Made by a program: the position numbers and the translations under genes. From the NCBI GenBank assembly GCA_965249005.1, contig CBDFLD010000023.1, positions 495,219-559,218 on the forward strand: DNA of 64,000 bases, in the 5' to 3' direction. Shown in pieces: positions 2,153 through 55,405 of the stretch (positions within the stretch are counted from its first letter, which is position 1; the number at the start of each line of letters is the position of its first letter). This DNA is from Acidobacteriota bacterium. GTDB taxonomy: Bacteria > Acidobacteriota > UBA6911. The notes beneath the pieces are model-generated. The model was not told the origin of the DNA, ran no database searches, and worked only from the letters and a program-made list of their open reading frames with translations.

Positions 2153-3376
2153 CTAAGTGTTGCGGGACCCCGGAATGGATTTCCAGGTGACTGCCAGTAT
2201 GCCCCAAAGGATCAAGCTGTTGAGGAAGAAAATGGCCCGAATGTCCAGATGCGTGATGGCGCCGGCAGTCGTGGGACCGAGAGCGCTCCCCAGCAGAGCG
2301 GAGCTGGCAAGAAAAGAAAAGGAAGTTGCCCGTGTCTCCTCCGGGATCATTTGACTCCCAAGGGTGTAGATTACCACCATGCTTCCCCCTGCGAGCAGTC
2401 CGAGCGCCGCTCGAAGAACCAGCAACTGGGTGGATGCGGTCACGAGACCCATGGGAATGCAAATGAGCGCTCCTGCGGTGAGCCTCATTAGCAGTATCTT
2501 GCGAACCTGAACCTTTCTTAACCAGTGCCCCAGCATGGTCGCGGAGGCTCCCTCGGACAGCAGCCCCAGAGAAATAATCATCCCCGAGGTTTTGGCCACG
2601 TGACTTACCTTCGTGCCCAGACTCAAAACGTAAAGGGGAACAATGGGAGCGAAGCTACGCTCGACGAGGTTCACAAAGAACGCGATCACCAGCATGGAGC
2701 CAAAAGAGGGAAGAGCGAGCGCGCTCCTGAACGACAGCTTGGTGGATCTCGCCTTTCTTTCCGCGGCTTCCTGGGACGACGGCTCCAGGTAGAGCCGATG
2801 GATCATCACCAACGCCGCCAGGGCAAAGCACGCGCTGACCATGCAGGTTTTTCGAATCCCGATCGAGTCCGCCAGAAATCCGCCCATCATCGGCCCGATT
2901 CCGGCAGAGACGATCTGCACGGTTTGCAGCATTCCTACCGAACGGCTGACGTTTTCCCTTGGTATGGTCGAGATCAAAAGCGGGACCGACATCGTACCAA
3001 ATCCGCCGAACATTCCCATGACGGCACGCAAGAGCCAGAGCTGATAAGGAGATTTCGCGAATCCAAACAAGGCCCAATGTAGCGTCGCAGCAGCCATTGC
3101 GCGTTCCACCATGATCTTCATCCCGAAGCGGTCCGCCAGTCTTCCCCACAGAGGGGCCAGAAACGCGGCAATCAATGGAGAAGTCGTAATGAGAAGGCCA
3201 GACCACGTGGCAATGGAGGCTTCTTGCCGCACCCCGAGCTCCGAAACATAGAGCGGTAGAAAGGGCATGACGAAGGTAAATCCGGCGAAGACAAGCGACG
3301 ACGCGATACAGATCGCCAGCCGATTGCGGCGCCATTGCTCTTTGGGAATCGTAAGGCGGAGATGCCTCAAGGCCAT
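2153..3376 (-). CDS. MFS transporter (12 transmembrane segments).
   Basis: Hydrophobic helices throughout. Typical MFS loop motifs are present (GRLADRFG, second-half repeat). Confidence 0.8.
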   Translation of the reverse strand: MALRHLRLTIPKEQWRRNRLAICIASSLVFAGFTFVMPFLPLYVSELGVRQEASIATWSGLLITTSPLIAAFLAPLWGRLADRFGMKIMVERAMAAATLHWALFGFAKSPYQLWLLRAVMGMFGGFGTMSVPLLISTIPRENVSRSVGMLQTVQIVSAGIGPMMGGFLADSIGIRKTCMVSACFALAALVMIHRLYLEPSSQEAAERKARSTKLSFRSALALPSFGSMLVIAFFVNLVERSFAPIVPLYVLSLGTKVSHVAKTSGMIISLGLLSEGASATMLGHWLRKVQVRKILLMRLTAGALICIPMGLVTASTQLLVLRAALGLLAGGSMVVIYTLGSQMIPEETRATSFSFLASSALLGSALGPTTAGAITHLDIRAIFFLNSLILWGILAVTWKSIPGSRNT

Positions 3377-3531
3377 GAGCCGGTTATTCTAACACATCCC
3401 TTCATCGCCCTCGTTCTTCTAGGCATCTCAGGCGGGTCTGCCGATAAACCGCTGGAAAGCGCCGACCGCGGCTTGTACGAACCTGGAGCGGTGTGTATGA
3501 TGATCTGCTTTGCAGACAGGGATGTATCTGA

Positions 3532-5331
3532 TTGAGCAACAAGTCCGTCATTCGAAACTTCTCCATCATTGCCCACATCGATCACGGAAAATCCACGCTG
3601 GCCGATCGACTGCTGGAATACACGGGCGCTCTCTCCCAGAGGGAGATGGCAAGCCAGGTCCTCGATGACATGGAATTGGAGCGGGAGCGTGGGATCACGA
3701 TCAAAGCCCGCTCGGTTCGTTTGAATTACGATGCGCTAGATGGAAACAGGTACATTTTGAACTTGATCGATACGCCTGGCCACGTTGATTTCTCCTATGA
3801 GGTCTCCCGTAGTCTCGCGGCATGTGACGGCGCGCTGCTGCTGATCGATGCTTCTCAAGGCGTCGAGGCCCAAACCCTTGCAAACACATATCTTGCGTTG
3901 GATCATAGTCTGGAGATCATTCCGGTGATCAACAAGATCGATTTGCCGAGCGCCGACATTGCCCGAATCCAGGACCAAATCGAGAACATCATCGGCCTGG
4001 ACGCTAGCAACGCCATCCTGACAAGCGCCAAAGAGGGAATCGGTACCGAGGAAGTTTTCGAAGCCATCGTCAAACGGTTGCCGGCTCCGACCGGAGACTA
4101 TGACAAACCGTTGAGGGCATTGATTTTTGACTCCTGGTTTGACCCATACCGGGGCGTGCTGGTGTTGATCCGAATTCTCGATGGGACCATTCGCCGGGGG
4201 ATGAAGATCCGGCTCCTGTCTACGGAGCAAACCTACTCCGTCGAACAGGTGGGCGTCATGACCCCGAAGTTCGCCGAGGTGGAGGAGCTCTCGGTCGGAG
4301 AGGTTGGGCTGATGGCGGCGGGAATCAAGCGTGTCGCGGACACGAGAATCGGGGAGACGATTACGGAAGATTCGAGACCAACGACGGAGCCTTTCCCGGG
4401 GTTCCAGGAAATCAAGCCCATGGTCTTCGCCGGACTTTATCCGACCGAAAGCGCTCAGTACGAGGACCTGCGCGATGCACTGGACAAGCTCCGCTTGAAC
4501 GACTCGTCCTTCTTTTACGAACCTGATACGTCCGGGGCCTTGGGGTTTGGCTTTCGCTGTGGTTTTCTCGGACTACTTCATATGGAAATCGTTCAGGAGC
4601 GGCTCGAGAGAGAATTCAATCTTTCCTTGCTCACCACAGCCCCTGGTGTCCGGTACAGGATCACGACGAGAAATGGTAAGACCGTGGAAATCCATAATCC
4701 GGCAAAGCTCCCTCCAGCCGGCGATGTGCAGAAGTTCGAGGAACCGATAATCACGGCCACCATTCTCACCAGCGACGAGTACCTGGGGCCCATCTTGAAG
4801 CTGCTCGAAGATAAACGAGGCCAGCAGCGTGGATTCGAGTACGTTTCCACCAATCGAGTGCTCATCACCTATCAGCTGCCTCTGAACGAAATCGTACTGG
4901 ATTTTTACGACCGCTTGAAGTCGGCCTCCCGCGGCTATGCGTCATTGGACTACCAGCTTTCGGGGTATCAGGAGTCCCGACTGGTCAAGCTGGACATTCT
5001 GGTAGCCGGAGATCCGATCGATGCTCTGTCGGTAATCGTGCACGCCGACGCGGCCCACGTGCGCGGACGGGCCCTGGCTCAGAAAATGAAAGAGCTTATT
5101 CCCCGCCAGATGTATGAAGTCGTGATTCAGGCATCGATCGGCAGCAAGATCATTGCCCGGGAAACCGTCCGTCCGCTGCGCAAGAACGTGCTTGCCAAAT
5201 GCTACGGGGGCGACGTCACTCGGAAGCGAAAGCTCCTCGAAAAGCAAAAAGAAGGCAAGAAGCGCATGAAGCGCCTCGGCAAGATCGAGATCCCTCAGGA
5301 AGCCTTCCTCGCCGTCCTTCGCGTGGATTAG
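3532..5331 (+). CDS. lepA: Elongation factor 4 (LepA). TTG start.
   Basis: N-terminal G-domain [30 protein letters not shown] and NKIDLP motifs. The length and C-terminal domain are typical of LepA. Confidence 0.95.
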
Positions 5332-5494
5332 GGACCGGGTCTCACACCCGAGGCGCTATCCGCTCAGCGGAAAGCGGAAAAATTGTAAGCCCCGTCACAC
5401 AATCCCCGCCACGGAAGGCCTGAATTGTATATTGGGCGCCTTATAGGCCGCCGATGAATCTTCTATGCGGCGTTCCGTTCCAAGGGGTCATTGT

Positions 5495-5890
5495 ATGAGT
5501 TATCCCAAACATCCGAAGGCGTGGAGCCAGAGCCAAGAGGGGAAAGGGACAGGCGGCTGCCTGGTCTTTCTGGCCCTCCTCGCACTCAGCGGCGTGATCG
5601 CTGTGAGGGCGGTCCCCCCCTACTACGCGTACAAGAGTCTTGAAACGGACGTAAAGACTGAAGTCAGCCGAGCGGGCGCCAATTTCTACGACAACGAGAG
5701 CATCATCAGGAATGTCTTGAGTTTGGCGAAGAAGAACGAAATCCGGATCAAACGCAGCAACGTGAAGCTGGACCGATTTGCAGGTCAGATTCATGTGAGG
5801 GTTCAGTGGACGGAAGAAATTGACTTTCTAGTTTATCCGTATGATATGACGTTCAGAATCAAAGCATCCAGCTACATCGGTCGTCTCTAG
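5495..5890 (+). CDS. Hypothetical membrane-anchored protein (DUF4845-like). Start at ATG 5495, with RBS AAGGGG.
   Basis: One N-terminal transmembrane helix (CLVFLALLALSGVIAV) plus a conserved soluble domain. The track ORF 5465 is an upstream extension without an RBS. Confidence 0.5.
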   Translation: MSYPKHPKAWSQSQEGKGTGGCLVFLALLALSGVIAVRAVPPYYAYKSLETDVKTEVSRAGANFYDNESIIRNVLSLAKKNEIRIKRSNVKLDRFAGQIHVRVQWTEEIDFLVYPYDMTFRIKASSYIGRL

Positions 5891-5990
5891 CCCCACCGGC
5901 CGCATACCTCAGCCGGGCGGTGCACCTCGCCTCGAACTCACTTGCACACCGTGGTTTCGAAGTCTAAGATGGTTATAGGCGAGGTGAACG

Positions 5991-6800
5991 ATGTTTCTCA
6001 TGCCTAGCCCCTTCCGGCGTCGAAACTGTCGCTTCGGACTACTGCTCTGCCTCTGGACCGGTCTACTGGCAGGCGGATGCGGCATTTCCATACCAAGAGT
6101 CGCGAAGGTCCAGGTGCCCGAGGCCAAGGTCCTTCAATCCAACGCGATCGCGAAGGAGGCGGACGTTTCTTTCGCTCGTAAGGACTATTACGCCGCCCTG
6201 ATCAAGTACCTCGAGGCTTCGCGCCTCAATCCCAATAGTGCATACATCTTCAACAAGGTTGGGATCACCTATTCACAACTTGATTTCTACGATGAGGCAA
6301 AGGACTCCTTCGAGAGGTCGATCGGACTGAATTCTGAGTACGTCTATCCGCTCAGCAATCTGGGCTCTGTATACTTCGCGCTTCAAGATCTGAGGAAGGC
6401 CGAGCAGCTCTACAGGAAAGCGATCGACATGAACGCCGATGTGGCCGCCTTCCACATCAATCTCGGAACACTGTTGTACGAGCGCAAGAAGTTCAAGAAG
6501 GGAATGGCTCAATGGCGCACGGGCTTATCGCTCGATCCGAATATCTTCGACAAACCGCAAAGAATTAGCCTGGTCGCAGCGGGCAAGGCAAGCTCCAAGA
6601 AAGAGAAGAGTTATTATGTGGCCCGGCTGTACGCATCGCTCGGAGATGTGGAGCGCGCCGTCACAAACCTCGAGAGGGCATTGAGTAACGGCTTTGAAGA
6701 TCTAAAGGCCATTCAGAAAGAGCGAGACTTCGATCCGATCCGTGAAGATCAGAGATTTATTGCCTTCATGCGCAACGCCTCCGTCATTACAAGACAATAG
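5991..6800 (+). CDS. TPR-repeat lipoprotein (lipobox LLAGGC).
   Basis: Signal peptide plus Cys lipobox. Several TPR repeats follow (AYIFNKVGITYSQLDFYDEAKDSFERSIGLN…). RBS GAGGTG. Confidence 0.7.
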   Translation: MFLMPSPFRRRNCRFGLLLCLWTGLLAGGCGISIPRVAKVQVPEAKVLQSNAIAKEADVSFARKDYYAALIKYLEASRLNPNSAYIFNKVGITYSQLDFYDEAKDSFERSIGLNSEYVYPLSNLGSVYFALQDLRKAEQLYRKAIDMNADVAAFHINLGTLLYERKKFKKGMAQWRTGLSLDPNIFDKPQRISLVAAGKASSKKEKSYYVARLYASLGDVERAVTNLERALSNGFEDLKAIQKERDFDPIREDQRFIAFMRNASVITRQ

Positions 6801-50028: not shown

Positions 50029-51285
50029 TCAGCTCGTTACCAACCGATTGGCATACAAGGGGAACTCGTCGTTGAGTTGAAGGACCGCCTGCCGGACCTC
50101 CCGATGAACCTCCGAGTCTGCAGGCGCCGATAACACCCGAGCAATCAGCCGGCCCACCGTCCTCATTTCTGCCTCCTTCATCCCTCGGGTAGTGACGGCA
50201 GGTGTCCCCAGTCGGATTCCACTAGCGACCATCGGCGGGTTCGGGTCAAAAGGAATCGCATTCTTGTTGACCGTGATGTTGGCTTTTTCCAGCGCCCGCT
50301 CGGCGTCCTTCCCGGTAGTACCCCTGCTGAAGACGTCGACCAGCATCAGGTGATTGTCCGTGCCGCCGGATACGATGCGGACGTTCTCGGCAATGAGCGT
50401 CCGTGCCAGCTCCTCTGCATTGTCCACTATCTGCCTTTGATACTCGGCAAAGCCAGGCAGCGAGGCCTCCTTCAGGCAGACCGCCTTCGCTGCAATAATA
50501 TGCGCCAGTGGCCCCCCCTGGATTCCCGGAAACAGATTTCGATCCAGATTCCGGCCGTGCTCCTGCCGGCACATGATCAGACCGCCTCGAGGTCCTCTCA
50601 AGGTCTTGTGCGTGGTCGTCGTGACAAAATCCATATGAGGGAAAGGACTGGGGTGGATGCCGGCGGCAACCAATCCTGCAAGGTGGGCAATGTCCGCCAT
50701 GGAATAGGCGCCGACGGAGCGCGAGATTTGGCCGACTCTTTCGAAGTCGATGATTCTCGAATAAGCGCTCGCTCCACAGATGATCAGTCGAGGTTTGGTC
50801 TTGCGCGCCAGCTCTTCGAGTTGATCGTAGTCGATTCGCTCGGTGTCTTTTTTCACACCGTACGGCTGGACGTTGTATATCCTGCCCGAGAAATTCAGAG
50901 AGTGCCCATGTGTCAAATGTCCGCCGTGGGCCAGATCCATCCCGAGAATCGTATCTCCCGGCTCACAGACAGCCATGTAGACAGCAATATTGGCCTGCGT
51001 TCCGGAATGAGGCTGGGCGTTGACATGTTCGGCGCCAAAGAGCTTTTTGGCACGTTCACGCACCAAGGACTCCACAACATCTACAAACTCACAACCCGCA
51101 TAGTATCGCCTTCCCGGGTAACCTTCCGCATACTTGTTCGTCAGTACAGAACCGGTCGCCTCCAGGATCGCCTCGCTGACGAAGTTCTCCGAGGCAATGA
51201 GTTCTAGGTTCTCGTTTTGTCGACGCACCTCGCTGTCGATTGCGGCGGCGACCTCGGGATCTACGTCGAACAGGGAATCATTCAT
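50029..51285 (-). CDS. glyA: Serine hydroxymethyltransferase. Start at ATG 51285 ([12 protein letters not shown]…).
   Basis: Canonical SHMT sequence including the PLP lysine region (…[14 protein letters not shown]…). Confidence 0.95.
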
Positions 51286-51466
51286 TAAATTCTGCCTTCG
51301 CGTCCCGGATATCCACCGCAACAGAGCGAGCAAAGTCGGGGTAATCCACGCTGTCGCGGGAGTACGTCCCGTGGTCCTTGACGGCAAAGCCACACCGGAT
51401 CAGGTGCTCCCTTACATGCTCTTTCAAGCCGAAGCCGGCATGATCGCTCCCGATCGCAAACCGCAT
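51278..51466 (-). pseudogene. rpiB: Ribose-5-phosphate isomerase B, N-terminal 62 codons only. Its stop is fused to the glyA start (AATGAATGA).
   Basis: [51 protein letters not shown] matches the RpiB N-terminus. The conserved GILICGTGIG active-site region is absent, so the C-terminal roughly 85 codons are missing. Confidence 0.5.
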
Positions 51467-51715
51467 GGAAATAGTCTACCATTAAAGCCGTAACCGGGCA
51501 CCCGAAGTCGGCTCTTCCGGCACCGATTCCAGCGCGCGGCCTCCGCATCGCCGGGTTTGGCCTTGACTCGTGCACCCTGGAATCTTAGCCTTTGCTTTTC
51601 ATCCCAGTGGGGGCTTGTTCTCACACGAGCGTATTCGCGGCAGCGAGCCCTGTCTAAAAAAAGGGAATTATAAGAAACGCTTGACGGGGCTGAGCCAGGG
51701 GTGTAGGGTTCCTGA

Positions 51716-52369
51716 ATGCAAAGGTGGGCACTTCCTTTTGTCGTCTGGCTTATCCTTTTTATCCTATCGCTCATCTTCGGGATGCCCGGTCACATTAACA
51801 ACCTCTGTTCGTGGAGGGGGTGGCTCAAAGTGAGTGACTGGGGTGCCCAACAGTGGATTTCTGGGGGGTTGATTCTCGCCTCAACAGTAGTGCTTATTGC
51901 CTATTTATGGTTGCAGAAAATCAAGGAAGGGAAGCTCCAGATCCCGAAACCGAAGATTGATCCAGCCGAGAGCGGATGGGACGATCGCGGCTACCACGGC
52001 CTATTTCTCAAGAATGTTGGTGATATCAAAGCGTATGATGTCGTCATGGAACCCTTGCAGATGGGGAAATACCCTATAGAGTTCACTGGTCCTGAGGTCT
52101 CGCAGCTGGAGCCTGGAGATAAGTGTTTCTTTCACCCAAATGCGGCCCCAGCTATACTCCTAAAAAATACTCCATCTGGTTGTCCTATCTTTAAGGTGCT
52201 CCGCGGCTGGCAAAGGGAAATGGGCGACAAACGGAGTGCAGAAGCGAAGGGCCGAATCAAGTACAAAGATAGGAATGGGGTGGACTACGAAACGAGATAC
52301 ACGATTGGCGTGGATGTGGACGCGAATGACGGTCTAGTCGTAAGGATCGAGACTGGTTCTAGGAAATGA
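51716..52369 (+). CDS. Passenger hypothetical membrane protein (2 N-terminal transmembrane helices plus a soluble domain) inside the IS unit. Lower-GC codon usage.
   Basis: Hydrophobic helices ALPFVVWLILFILSLIFG and ISGGLILASTVVLIAYLWL. No recognisable family. Confidence 0.45.
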   Translation: MQRWALPFVVWLILFILSLIFGMPGHINNLCSWRGWLKVSDWGAQQWISGGLILASTVVLIAYLWLQKIKEGKLQIPKPKIDPAESGWDDRGYHGLFLKNVGDIKAYDVVMEPLQMGKYPIEFTGPEVSQLEPGDKCFFHPNAAPAILLKNTPSGCPIFKVLRGWQREMGDKRSAEAKGRIKYKDRNGVDYETRYTIGVDVDANDGLVVRIETGSRK

Positions 52370-52647
52370 TCGCCGTGTCGGAGAATTACAATATGAGAAA
52401 TAGGCGAGGGTTTAGGGTATGACAAAGCAGGAACGTGAAGACATCAAAGCCCGTGCTTTGCTTAGGCTCCATGAGTCTAAGCACGAGGTATCCGCACACC
52501 GAAGAATACAGGGATGCTGTCCAGAGGCGAGATTACGCTCAAGGTGAGTGCAACGATCTTGGCATCGTTGGGCTCTACCCAGAAAGAAAGTCATGAGAAA
52601 ACGACCTGACTATGGAGATGCAGCCCCAGGGGATTTGGTGAGAGCCC

Positions 52648-53565
52648 TTATGACCGGGCACCGGAAGACAACCCGTTATCTGCAGTCAGTGCCCGATACG
52701 TCAGCCTCTTCTCGACCAGATTCACAACAACTTGTCGCATCTGATGCAGGGTGTCAGCATGACGAAGATTGTGCTTCCCCGCAAACTCCCGAACATAGCG
52801 GTCCAGATGCTTAGGACTGATCTTATGGAAGACTCCCGTATGCGCCCGCTTCAACATCGACCAGAAGCTCTCGACGCCGTTGGTGTGGGCCTTGCCCCTC
52901 ACGTACTCGCCGACCGAGTGCTTGACCGTCTCATGATTTGGCAGGGTGTGATAGGTCAAAGCATCATCGGTGTAGATTCTGGCTCCAGGCTCAACGTGCT
53001 CCATGATAAAGCGGCTCATGGTCTCGCTCTTGGTATTCGGGACAACTGTGGCCTGGACGCGGTTGCTAGCTCGGTCTTTGATTCCCGCTACGGCGGTCTT
53101 GCCAACTGGACCTCGGCCTTCCAGCTTGGCTCTATTGGACTTGCTCATATTCCTGCGCTTGCCACCCATGTAGGTCTCATCGACTTCCACAGGACCGGAG
53201 AAAGGGGCTCCGTTGTCCGTGCGGGACCAAGCCTCACGAATCCGGTGGAGCATGAACCATGCGGCGGGCTGGCTGACTCCGATATCCCGGTGCAGCTTCA
53301 TGCTGCTGATGCTCTTGAGGCTCGTCAGTTCCAGGTAGATGGCCACGACCCACTTGCGGAGGTGAATCTTGGTGTGCGCCAGTGCGGTCCCAGTTCTGAC
53401 CGAGAAGTAACTCCGGCAATCGGTGCACCAGTAGGGCATCGGCTTTGCGTTGGGGGTCTCACTAGTGTTGAGGCTCCCGCAGTGTCCACAGCACCGGCTA
53501 CCGTCCCAAAGCTGGTCTTCAAACCACTTGGTCGCAACCTCTTCATTGGGAAACAATTCGAGCAA
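52648..53565 (-). CDS. IS1595-family transposase (N-terminal zinc ribbon plus ISXO2-like DDE domain). TTG start.
   Basis: CCGHCGS…YWCTDCRSYFS zinc ribbon, and …HTGVFHKISPKHLDRYVREFAGKHN… at the C-terminus typical of IS1595/ISXO2-like transposases. Confidence 0.85.
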   Translation of the reverse strand: MLELFPNEEVATKWFEDQLWDGSRCCGHCGSLNTSETPNAKPMPYWCTDCRSYFSVRTGTALAHTKIHLRKWVVAIYLELTSLKSISSMKLHRDIGVSQPAAWFMLHRIREAWSRTDNGAPFSGPVEVDETYMGGKRRNMSKSNRAKLEGRGPVGKTAVAGIKDRASNRVQATVVPNTKSETMSRFIMEHVEPGARIYTDDALTYHTLPNHETVKHSVGEYVRGKAHTNGVESFWSMLKRAHTGVFHKISPKHLDRYVREFAGKHNLRHADTLHQMRQVVVNLVEKRLTYRALTADNGLSSGARS

Positions 53566-53707
53566 CTGGAGAACGGTGAGACCCTTGCGGTGAGACTTTC
53601 CAGGTGCTTTGTGCTTTGTGCTTTGTCTTTGTCATGGAAATAGTATACAAAAGGAGAGGGGAAATGTCAAGCGTTTCTTATAATTCCCTAAAAAAAGGCG
53701 GAGACCC

Positions 53708-55405
53708 ATGCGATGGTCCAACACCTTCATACCCACGTTGAGAGACAACCCGGCAGATGCGGAATCGCCGTCTCATCAGCTCCTACTCAGGGCCGGCTTC
53801 ATTCGTCAACTCGGTGCCGGGATATACTCATACTTGCCGTTGGGGCAGCGGACCCTCTTGAAGATCAGCCAGATCATTCGGGAAGAAATGGGCGCCATTG
53901 GCGCGCAGGAGTTCTTTCTTCCAGCTATTCATCCGGCCAGCATTTGGCAGGAGAGCGGAAGATGGGAAGACATGGGCCCCACGATGTTTCGGCTGAAAGA
54001 CCGTTGGGGAAGGGATTTGTGCCTCGGGATGACGCACGAGGAAGTGTTCACGGCGATCGCGCGCGGCGAGATCCGTTCTTACAAGGATCTACCGCAAACA
54101 TGGTATCAGATCCAAACGAAATTCAGGGATGAAGAGCGTCCGAAGTCGGGGTTGTTGCGCCTGCGTCAGTTCATCATGAAGGATTCGTACTCCTTTGACA
54201 TCAACGACGACGGGCTCGACCAAAGCTATCAGAAACACCACGACGCGTACTGCCGAATCTATCGACGTTGTGGCTTGGATTTTGTCGGAGTGGAGGCCAG
54301 CTCCGGCGCCATGGGAGGAAGCCATTCCCAGGAGTTCATGGTCCGGATGGATGCCGGAGAAGATTTTGTCGTCACGTGTGCTTCCTGCCAATATGCGGCC
54401 AATCTGGAGCTCGCGACTTCGAAACCTGAAGCGAAGTCGGACTCTGCGCCTTCTGGCGAACTCACCGAAGTGCACACGCCGGACAAGAAGACGATCGCCG
54501 AAGTCAGTGACTTTCTCGGATGTAGTCCCGGAAGCCAGATCAAGTCCCTGGTGTACGTGGTCGATGACCAACCTTTTCTCTTTTTGGTTCAGGGCGACGA
54601 TCAGCTCAACGAGACCAAGGTCCTTGCTGCACTCCAGAGTACGCACGCCCGCCCAGCGAATCCTGAAGAGATCCGCGAGCTATTCGGCGCCGATGCCGGC
54701 AGCCTGGGACCAGTCGGCTTATCGGATATAGCGATTTATGCTGATTCCAGGCTTCAAGGACGGCAGAATCTGACCTGCGGAGCAAACAAGGACGATTACC
54801 ACCTGCAGGGCGTGACCCCAGATGTGCACTTCAAGCCAGCCTGGACGGATCTCAGGCAAGTACAAAAAGGGGAGCCGTGCATCCGTTGCGGGGATGCTCT
54901 CGACGTCTACAAAGCAGCCGAGGTCGGACATATTTTCAAGCTGGGCACCAAGTATTCCGAGAGCATGGGAGCCATGGTTCTCAACCCGGAAGGCAAGCAG
55001 ACCCCTATCGTCATGGGAAGTTACGGCATTGGCCTCGAACGGATCATGTCTTCGGCGGTGGAGTTGTACCACGATTCCGACGGGATCGTCTGGCCGAGCG
55101 CCATCGCGCCCTTCTCGACTGTGATCACTCCCATCAACTACAAGGGAGAGATGCAAGCCGCCGCCGATGATCTCTATCGGCAATTGCAGGCTCACGGCAT
55201 CGACGCCCTATTGGACGACCGTCTGGAACGACCCGGCGTGAAGTTCAAGGACGCGGATCTGGTCGGCGTCCCGTACCGTCTGGTCCTGGGGCCGCAAAAA
55301 CTGAAAGAGGGCAAGGCGGAGCTGTTCGACCGCAGGGCGAAAACGGGAGACGTCTTCGACATTTCCGAGATCATCTCTGTCCTCGCGGAGAAGCTCCGCT
55401 CGTAG
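53708..55405 (+). CDS. proS: Prolyl-tRNA synthetase, bacterial type with the INS editing domain.
   Basis: Class II motifs (…FRDEERPKSGLLRLRQFIMKDSYSF…, …GSYGIGLERI…), an insertion domain, and the C-terminal anticodon-binding domain. Confidence 0.95.
   Translation: MRWSNTFIPTLRDNPADAESPSHQLLLRAGFIRQLGAGIYSYLPLGQRTLLKISQIIREEMGAIGAQEFFLPAIHPASIWQESGRWEDMGPTMFRLKDRWGRDLCLGMTHEEVFTAIARGEIRSYKDLPQTWYQIQTKFRDEERPKSGLLRLRQFIMKDSYSFDINDDGLDQSYQKHHDAYCRIYRRCGLDFVGVEASSGAMGGSHSQEFMVRMDAGEDFVVTCASCQYAANLELATSKPEAKSDSAPSGELTEVHTPDKKTIAEVSDFLGCSPGSQIKSLVYVVDDQPFLFLVQGDDQLNETKVLAALQSTHARPANPEEIRELFGADAGSLGPVGLSDIAIYADSRLQGRQNLTCGANKDDYHLQGVTPDVHFKPAWTDLRQVQKGEPCIRCGDALDVYKAAEVGHIFKLGTKYSESMGAMVLNPEGKQTPIVMGSYGIGLERIMSSAVELYHDSDGIVWPSAIAPFSTVITPINYKGEMQAAADDLYRQLQAHGIDALLDDRLERPGVKFKDADLVGVPYRLVLGPQKLKEGKAELFDRRAKTGDVFDISEIISVLAEKLRS

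Follow-up and report, generated by a model that had tools for sequence, protein, structure and literature searches.

The segment at positions 51663 to 53688 of the window, by which is meant the whole 64,000-nucleotide (64-kb) stretch of acidobacterial contig CBDFLD010000023.1 that was analysed, is very probably one copy of a previously unnamed transporter IS (tIS), that is, an insertion sequence (IS) with passenger genes, which belongs to the IS1595 family, most resembles the ISNwi1 subgroup and resides in a Marinacidobacterales-type acidobacterium. The element itself is new; the type of element to which it belongs is already known. According to two later articles that cite their work (PMC3129680, PMC11891212), Siguier, Gagnevin and Chandler introduced the term 'transporter IS' in the same 2009 publication in which they defined the IS1595 family. 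Since the tIS concept arose on this very family, a passenger is characteristic of it, and the statement in an earlier note on this DNA that passenger-carrying IS1595 relatives are uncommon is wrong. The segment and its immediate borders comprise the following features.

51655 to 51662, no strand: left copy of the target-site duplication (TSD), TAAAAAAA, 8 bp, a sequence reading; other copies of the element have different 8-mers there
51663 to 51685, plus strand: left terminal inverted repeat (IRL), GGGAATTATAAGAAACGCTTGAC, 23 bp
51716 to 52369, plus strand: passenger gene 1, encoding 217 aa, with predicted transmembrane helices at about residues 5-21 and 41-72 and a C-terminal immunoglobulin (Ig)-like beta-sandwich at about residues 80-212
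52419 to 52596, plus strand: remnant of passenger gene 2, split into two frames by a 161-bp internal deletion after about 52501
52648 to 53635, minus strand: transposase gene, frameshifted near its 5' end, stop codon at 52648-52650
53666 to 53688, minus strand: right terminal inverted repeat (IRR), the perfect reverse complement of IRL
53689 to 53696, no strand: right copy of the TSD, TAAAAAAA, a sequence reading

The two inverted repeats (IRs) are perfect over 23 bp, or 24 bp if the adjoining A/T is included, and bound an IR-to-IR unit of 2026 bp in the window copy. They are the sole such pair in the 64 kb, as a search of the window with GGGAATTATAAGAAACGCTTGAC that allowed up to 3 mismatches matched only IRL and IRR and gave 0 matches in 100 shuffles. 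The perfect repeats and the perfect 8-bp direct repeat outside them had been described in the earlier note, and both are present as described; the IRs are also truly terminal, in that homology among the copies of the element ends exactly at their tips. The same note had called the segment lower in GC than its surroundings, which holds for the passenger gene (0.503) and the spacer (0.511) and fails for the transposase gene (0.564), whose GC content equals that of the host (window mean 0.563).

That the transposase is of the IS1595 type, as had been proposed, is borne out by matches of the minus-strand open reading frame (ORF) at 52648-53565 to NCBIfam NF033547 (transpos_IS1595; 184 bits, cutoff 75) and to Pfam DDE_Tnp_IS1595 (PF12762; E=4.4e-40). 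The candidate catalytic motifs VDETY, TDD and NGVESF look intact by eye. An N-terminal CxxC...CxxC zinc ribbon (CCGHCGS...WCTDCRSYF) is read from the motif and not from a profile score, the match to Pfam Zn_ribbon_IS1595 (13.8 bits) being below the cutoff of 25.4. The IS1595 family consists of the IS1016, ISPna2, ISH4, IS1595, ISSod11, ISNwi and ISNha5 groups, and its members usually generate an 8-bp TSD and encode a transposase that has its DDE domain at the C-terminus and, outside the IS1016 group, a zinc finger at the N-terminus (PMC8101967). The IS1016 group was ruled out as the subgroup by the zinc ribbon of the window transposase. When the transposase was compared with 21 labelled DDE domains rebuilt from the supplement of PMC8101967, the best references were ISSpo8 (94 bits), ISNwi1 (91 bits) and ISPepr2 (82 bits), and five related transposases likewise scored best against references of the ISNwi1 group. 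The ends of the element, which read GGGAATTAT (GGTAATTAT in L008), would also fit an ISNwi1 end consensus of ggnnatTAT.

The element shares with tIS of the ISNwi1 subgroup a DDE_Tnp_IS1595 domain with an N-terminal zinc ribbon, terminal IRs, an 8-bp TSD and a passenger inside the IRs, and differs from them in its acidobacterial host, in the unannotated family of its passenger and in its transposase, which is only about 35% identical to the ISNwi1-subgroup references over the DDE domain. The closest transposase among 72,556 plasmids is only 40% identical, which argues that the IS is new. ISNha5, a tIS with a transcription regulator as passenger (PMC11891212), is likewise an IS1595-family element whose passenger does not serve transposition, but the type of passenger is different and references of the ISNha5 group are absent from the top 7 matches of the window type. 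A composite transposon or a Tn3-like unit transposon was rejected given the single transposase, the 2-kb size of the unit, and the lack of a second IS copy in the window and of a resolvase ORF.

Further copies were sought by exact look-up of the passenger protein, which was found on 3 more contigs, all from a single metagenome assembly; on each of them its gene converges with that of the same transposase, and the neighbourhoods are unrelated. These copies, together with related elements, are listed below; the heptamer units are those of a GTGCTTT tract in the transposase gene.

Window copy: 2026 bp, TSD TAAAAAAA, three heptamer units
L002 copy: 2026 bp, TSD ATTGGAAA, three heptamer units
L003 copy: 2019 bp, TSD TAAAGTTT, two heptamer units
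L001 copy: 2019 bp, TSD AAATTGTA, within an esterase gene, beside an IS3-family element
L011 variant: 3948-6149, 2202 bp, TSD AATCCGTA, same perfect IRs
L005 element (also L006 and L004): 2326-5029, 2704 bp, TSD TTTTCTTT, 23-bp IRs identical to those of the window, in another Marinacidobacterales metagenome-assembled genome (MAG)
L007 element: 1810 bp, TSD ATTATTTA, a related element on a 17.7-kb contig
L008 unit: 3950-6793, 2844 bp, no TSD, perfect 28-bp IRs, GGTAATTATGCCC...

The copies in the window, L001, L002 and L003 differ by 1 synonymous single-nucleotide polymorphism, one 7-bp unit, 1 terminal base and nothing else, and the passenger lies between the IRs in every one of them. Since near-identical copies have their own TSDs and their homology ends at the IR tips, it is the whole unit, passenger included, that transposes, and both of the refuting conditions named in the earlier note fail. 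With copies at four sites besides that of the window, L011 included, the element is multi-copy and recently active in Marinacidobacterales-like Acidobacteriota; the recent transposition claimed in the earlier note is thus borne out by four near-identical copies with an 8-bp TSD each, and the search for additional copies that it recommended turned them up at unrelated sites. An 8-bp TSD was found at all 7 of 7 independent insertions of the element and its relatives, and the seven TSDs pooled are 86% A+T in a genome of 56% G+C, which points to an AT-rich target preference. The IR was also present in two 'Candidatus Marinacidobacterales' MAGs in a scan of genome contigs, which points to the likely host group. 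In JGI metagenomes a degenerate IR pattern gave 0 matches and the A1 protein-pattern scan gave no confirmed relative. In L001 (5478-9886) the esterase gene is broken by the tIS copy and the adjoining IS3-family element (rve and HTH_Tnp_1), and the tIS copy has a C-to-G change at the extreme tip of its IRR.

The related elements indicate which parts of the unit are exchangeable. The IRL sequence is the same in L001, L002, L003, L005 and L011. In its passenger half L011 shares about 95% identity with the window element, and in its transposase half only 50-85% (74% at the protein level); a 21-bp (7-aa) tandem duplication is present near the C-terminus of its passenger. Given these unequal identities, L011 is a mosaic, and passenger and transposase modules recombine. 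The L005-type element, present in at least 2 copies, has a transposase only 66% identical to the window type, so that its IRs are better conserved than its transposase. Its cargo is unrelated: one ORF of 97 aa matches DUF6276 weakly, and another of 124 aa has a hydrophobic segment at its N-terminus. The behaviour that defines a tIS is therefore seen here, in that the passenger within the IRs travels with the IS and that the same IRs enclose other cargo in the L005 element. L007 is on a plasmid-like contig with MobA/MobL, resolvase and RelE/antitoxin genes, which suggests a route for horizontal spread. The L008 unit contains a passenger homolog (P0007), a 237-aa ORF of unknown nature and an IS1595 transposase (5678-6571, minus strand), which the original gene call overlooked in favour of an ORF on the opposite strand. 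Clear IRs were not found in L013 or L014, and L015 is too short to be informative.

The earlier note had described the passenger as a 217-aa protein with two transmembrane segments and no recognisable family, and this description stands: there are two hydrophobic helices, and none of Pfam, NCBIfam, PADLOC and PHROGs gave a match. When 1.8 billion representative proteins were searched with a profile, the passenger fell into a family of 85 clusters, defined at 50% identity, with E<=1e-3 (35 with E<=1e-10). The A2 profile, run against a set of 5.8 billion proteins, recovered 6 proteins only, owing to a word prefilter. A Pfam domain was found in 0 of the 34 family members tested, and in most members one or two hydrophobic segments are present at the N-terminal end. 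The dN/dS ratio (nonsynonymous to synonymous substitution rates) is 0.28-0.52 for the passenger and 0.10-0.16 for the transposase, which shows the passenger to be a real gene under purifying selection, and the passenger evolves faster than the transposase (54% versus 84% identity between the window and L007).

Structure prediction, which had been recommended for the passenger, yielded a confident fold from which no function could be read. The AlphaFold model, based on a 34-sequence alignment, has a mean pLDDT (predicted local distance difference test) score of 83, with values above 90 over most of residues 80-212, and consists of two helices followed by a beta-sandwich; the predicted fold class is Ig-like with a membrane anchor. 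A cluster of Lys and Arg residues after the second transmembrane helix weakly suggests, by the positive-inside rule, that the beta-sandwich is cytoplasmic. Foldseek searches with the model against the PDB gave TM-scores (template modelling scores) of no more than 0.38, the top matches being KirBac/Kir channels. The likeness is one of architecture only (7-12% identity): the passenger lacks a pore helix and a GYG-type filter between its helices, and the loop at residues 22-40, MPGHINNLCSWRGWLKVSD, has no filter motif. Channel identity was rejected on the grounds of the missing filter motif and the low TM-scores. Matches in BFVD were to uncharacterised phage proteins only, with TM-scores of no more than 0.50, and a PDB sequence profile gave nothing but an insignificant match to the transmembrane region of YbbJ.

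We infer that the passenger is selected cargo that is not needed for transposition. It would be dispensable because elements of the L005 type hold different cargo between the same IRs and still have a TSD and at least two copies. The passenger is probably a binding or protective protein, tethered to the inner membrane, that benefits host or element. The word 'unrelated', by which the earlier note had set the passenger apart from the transposase, does not fit the contexts of its homologs. Among 11 family members whose contexts were sampled, most of them from a few related assemblies, 8 adjoin an IS1595-type transposase (P0001, P0090, P0002, P0004, P0007, P0013, P0018 and P0049), and these cases include transposases only 36% identical to the window type as well as elements with different IRs. 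Of the remaining 3 contexts, one is by an IS1-like transposase, one is by a Hachiman pair and one is uninformative. The second of these is P0032 (407 aa; a contig of JGI 3300050046), which adjoins a Hachiman-type pair of HamA and a DEAD/Helicase_C protein with no transposase in view.

It may be, though this is rather unlikely, that the passenger founds an uncharacterised family (at least 85 clusters at 50% identity) that is a habitual partner of IS1595/ISNwi1-type transposases, is expressed from a promoter within the IR and is a dedicated accessory of the IS lineage acting in membrane-linked transposition control, exclusion or defence. The narrower proposal that it is a dedicated accessory of this IS lineage and not interchangeable cargo is unlikely; such an accessory might, for example, act at the membrane to regulate transposition or fix its location, or keep competing copies out. 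The proposal would account for homologs, down to E~1e-6, being beside IS1595-type transposases of as little as 36% identity in 8 of 11 contexts, for a candidate passenger promoter that is embedded in the IR and mirrors that of the transposase, and for the purifying selection on the passenger. This passenger is, however, missing from the L005-type element, which shares the IRs, has a TSD and occurs in more than one copy; the passenger evolves far faster than the transposase (54% versus 84% identity); the passenger and transposase halves of L011 have different histories; one homolog has a Hachiman pair but no visible transposase as its neighbour; and the sampled contexts come mostly from a few related assemblies.

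An unlikely reading is that the passenger is cargo of benefit to the host with a role in defence or exclusion, for example anti-phage or protective of the envelope, that offsets the cost of the IS. A membrane anchor joined to a predicted Ig-like domain of the binding type, quick divergence at a dN/dS of 0.3-0.5, the one homolog adjoining HamA and a helicase, and uncharacterised phage proteins of the same architecture are all in keeping with such a role, but there is no PADLOC or PHROGs match and no recognisable effector domain, and the defence-island context is a single case. A further view, in line with the word 'unrelated' in the earlier note, is that this IS captured a host gene a single time and that the gene has travelled along by accident, without ties to the lineage of the IS. 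It is highly improbable, since diverged homologs (26-68% identity) recur in or beside IS1595-type elements with different IRs, even though the GC of the passenger (0.503, versus 0.564 for the transposase gene) and the exchange of modules seen in the L011 mosaic would agree with it.

In L011 the passenger and transposase genes are separated by an intact ORF of 112 aa, where the window type is 161 bp shorter. Given this 161-bp loss, the small ORFs of the window (52419-52547, and up to 52596) are the out-of-frame halves of the 112-aa gene, and a decayed second passenger gene lies between the two genes of the window element.

The earlier note had considered the insertion probably still mobile, and for autonomous movement this does not hold, since a 7-bp tandem duplication separates the ATG of the transposase gene from the transposase frame. 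The tract responsible, identified with TRF, is as follows.

53604 to 53624, no strand: heptamer tract, GTGCTTT in three units; two units in intact copies

Translation from the ATG at 53635-53633 follows another frame, MTKTKHKAQSTWKV..., and ends after 30 codons. The transposase frame of the window copy has no ATG; it is open from 53631, where it reads QRQSTKHKAPGKSHRKGLTVLQLLELF... after a stop, and its first start codon is the TTG at 53565. In the two-unit copies L001 and L003, MTKTKHKAPGKSHRKGL... is in frame and yields 326 aa. The third GTGCTTT unit therefore puts the ATG out of frame, and the window copy lacks the uninterrupted transposase frame from its start codon that an autonomous IS would have. 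The N-terminal motif that is lost, APGKxHRKG(L/I)..QL, is kept in transposases 66-84% identical. In the protein collection the two-unit N-terminus was found on 9 of 11 contigs (as 326-, 338- and 339-aa calls) and the three-unit form on 2 of 11, as a 305-aa call (L002) and a 263-aa call that is probably from the window's own contig. The heptamer tract is absent from related lineages, and the third unit is read as a slippage mutation that probably makes the window copy non-autonomous. With its ends intact, the window copy could still be mobilised in trans by transposase from a two-unit copy.

Alternatively, the tract could be a phase-variable or programmed switch with the transposase on at two units and off at three. 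Both alleles do occur among otherwise identical copies, the three-unit allele is at two loci, and unit number toggles the frame. Such a switch is nevertheless very unlikely: with only 2-3 units the tract is far shorter than contingency tracts typically are, no related lineage has it, 9 of the 11 contigs carry the two-unit allele, and recoding would require a +1 shift for which no signal is recognisable. The transposase of IS1, a relative of IS1595, is of a related superfamily (weak NF033558 match) and is made by -1 programmed frameshifting, which the break of frame close to the 5' end of the window copy recalls. In the window copy, however, the break is a 7-bp duplication that is absent from intact copies; a +1 shift would be required, and a conserved slippery site is lacking. 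IS1-style frameshifting was rejected as being in the wrong direction and not conserved.

Both genes of the element appear to be served by promoters that are partly embedded in the IRs.

53642 to 53670, minus strand: transposase promoter, -35 TTGACA (53670-53665, in IRR), 17 nt, -10 TATACT (53647-53642), 6 nt to ATG
51681 to 51709, plus strand: candidate passenger promoter, -35 TTGACG (51681-51686, inner edge of IRL), 17 nt, -10 TAGGGT (51704-51709), 6 nt to ATG

In a promoter scan the transposase promoter had 11 of 12 consensus matches, and its layout (-35 at the inner IR edge, 17-18 nt, TAnnnT, 6 nt to ATG) is found in L003, L011, L007 and L005 despite unrelated spacers. The geometry on the passenger side, read by eye, is kept in L011, L007 (TAGAGT) and L008 (TTGATT-17-TAGATT-9-ATG), and from this conservation the passenger-side promoter would be real. 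Both genes would thus be transcribed inward from -35 hexamers that overlap the inner IR edges. With so little as 6 nt between the -10 and the ATG, the transcripts would be near-leaderless, and both promoters could be repressed by transposase bound to the IRs.

Several points weigh against parts of this account. The subgroup margin is modest, at about 9 bits (94 bits versus 85 for the IS1016 references). The empty target site of the window locus would read GTCTAAAAAAAGGCGGAG, and it was not recovered, exact look-up of the neighbouring ProS protein having returned no record. No biochemical function was assigned to the passenger by Pfam, NCBIfam, PADLOC, PHROGs, the PDB profile or the fold searches, and the passenger-side promoter is too weak for a consensus scan to detect. 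Lastly, the three-unit allele occurs at two loci, the window and L002, so that inactivity is not proven; its presence at both would be due to trans-mobilisation, residual activity of the shorter product or recurrent slippage.

The insertion is in a divergent region, between a fragment resembling rpiB together with glyA on the minus strand and proS on the plus strand.

51278 to 51466, minus strand: rpiB-like ORF, 62 aa, matching positions 2-58 of the 138-position LacAB_rpiB profile
53708 to 55405, plus strand: proS ORF, prolyl-tRNA synthetase (ProRS), with Pfam tRNA-synt_2b, tRNA_edit and HGTP_anticodon

The rpiB-like ORF ends at the start of glyA and looks like a truncated remnant fused against it. 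The element, including its TSD, ends 11 nt before the ATG of proS and retains GGAG, and proS is cut off by the IS from its former upstream region. A plus-strand terminator was not found within the element. Each IR contains a perfect outward TATAAT 4 nt from its tip (53679-53684 and 51667-51672), and the one in IRR (53679-53684) has no matching -35. ProRS is essential, and proS is therefore probably transcribed either by read-through from the passenger strand or from the outward TATAAT of IRR. The outward TATAAT of the IRs could contribute to expression of flanking genes, proS being an example. Inserted as it is 11 nt before the gene of an essential tRNA synthetase, the IS must either permit outward transcription or provide it.

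As an element, this is an ordinary new tIS, though a cleanly documented one, from a phylum that has been little studied; it can help in the annotation of Acidobacteriota MAGs and mark recent genome flux. Three side results are of modest wider interest: otherwise identical copies form a natural allele pair, one with an in-frame and one with an out-of-frame transposase; an unannotated membrane-protein family tracks IS1595-type transposases over deep divergence; and the mirror-image promoters embedded in the IRs would couple expression of the cargo to that of the transposase.

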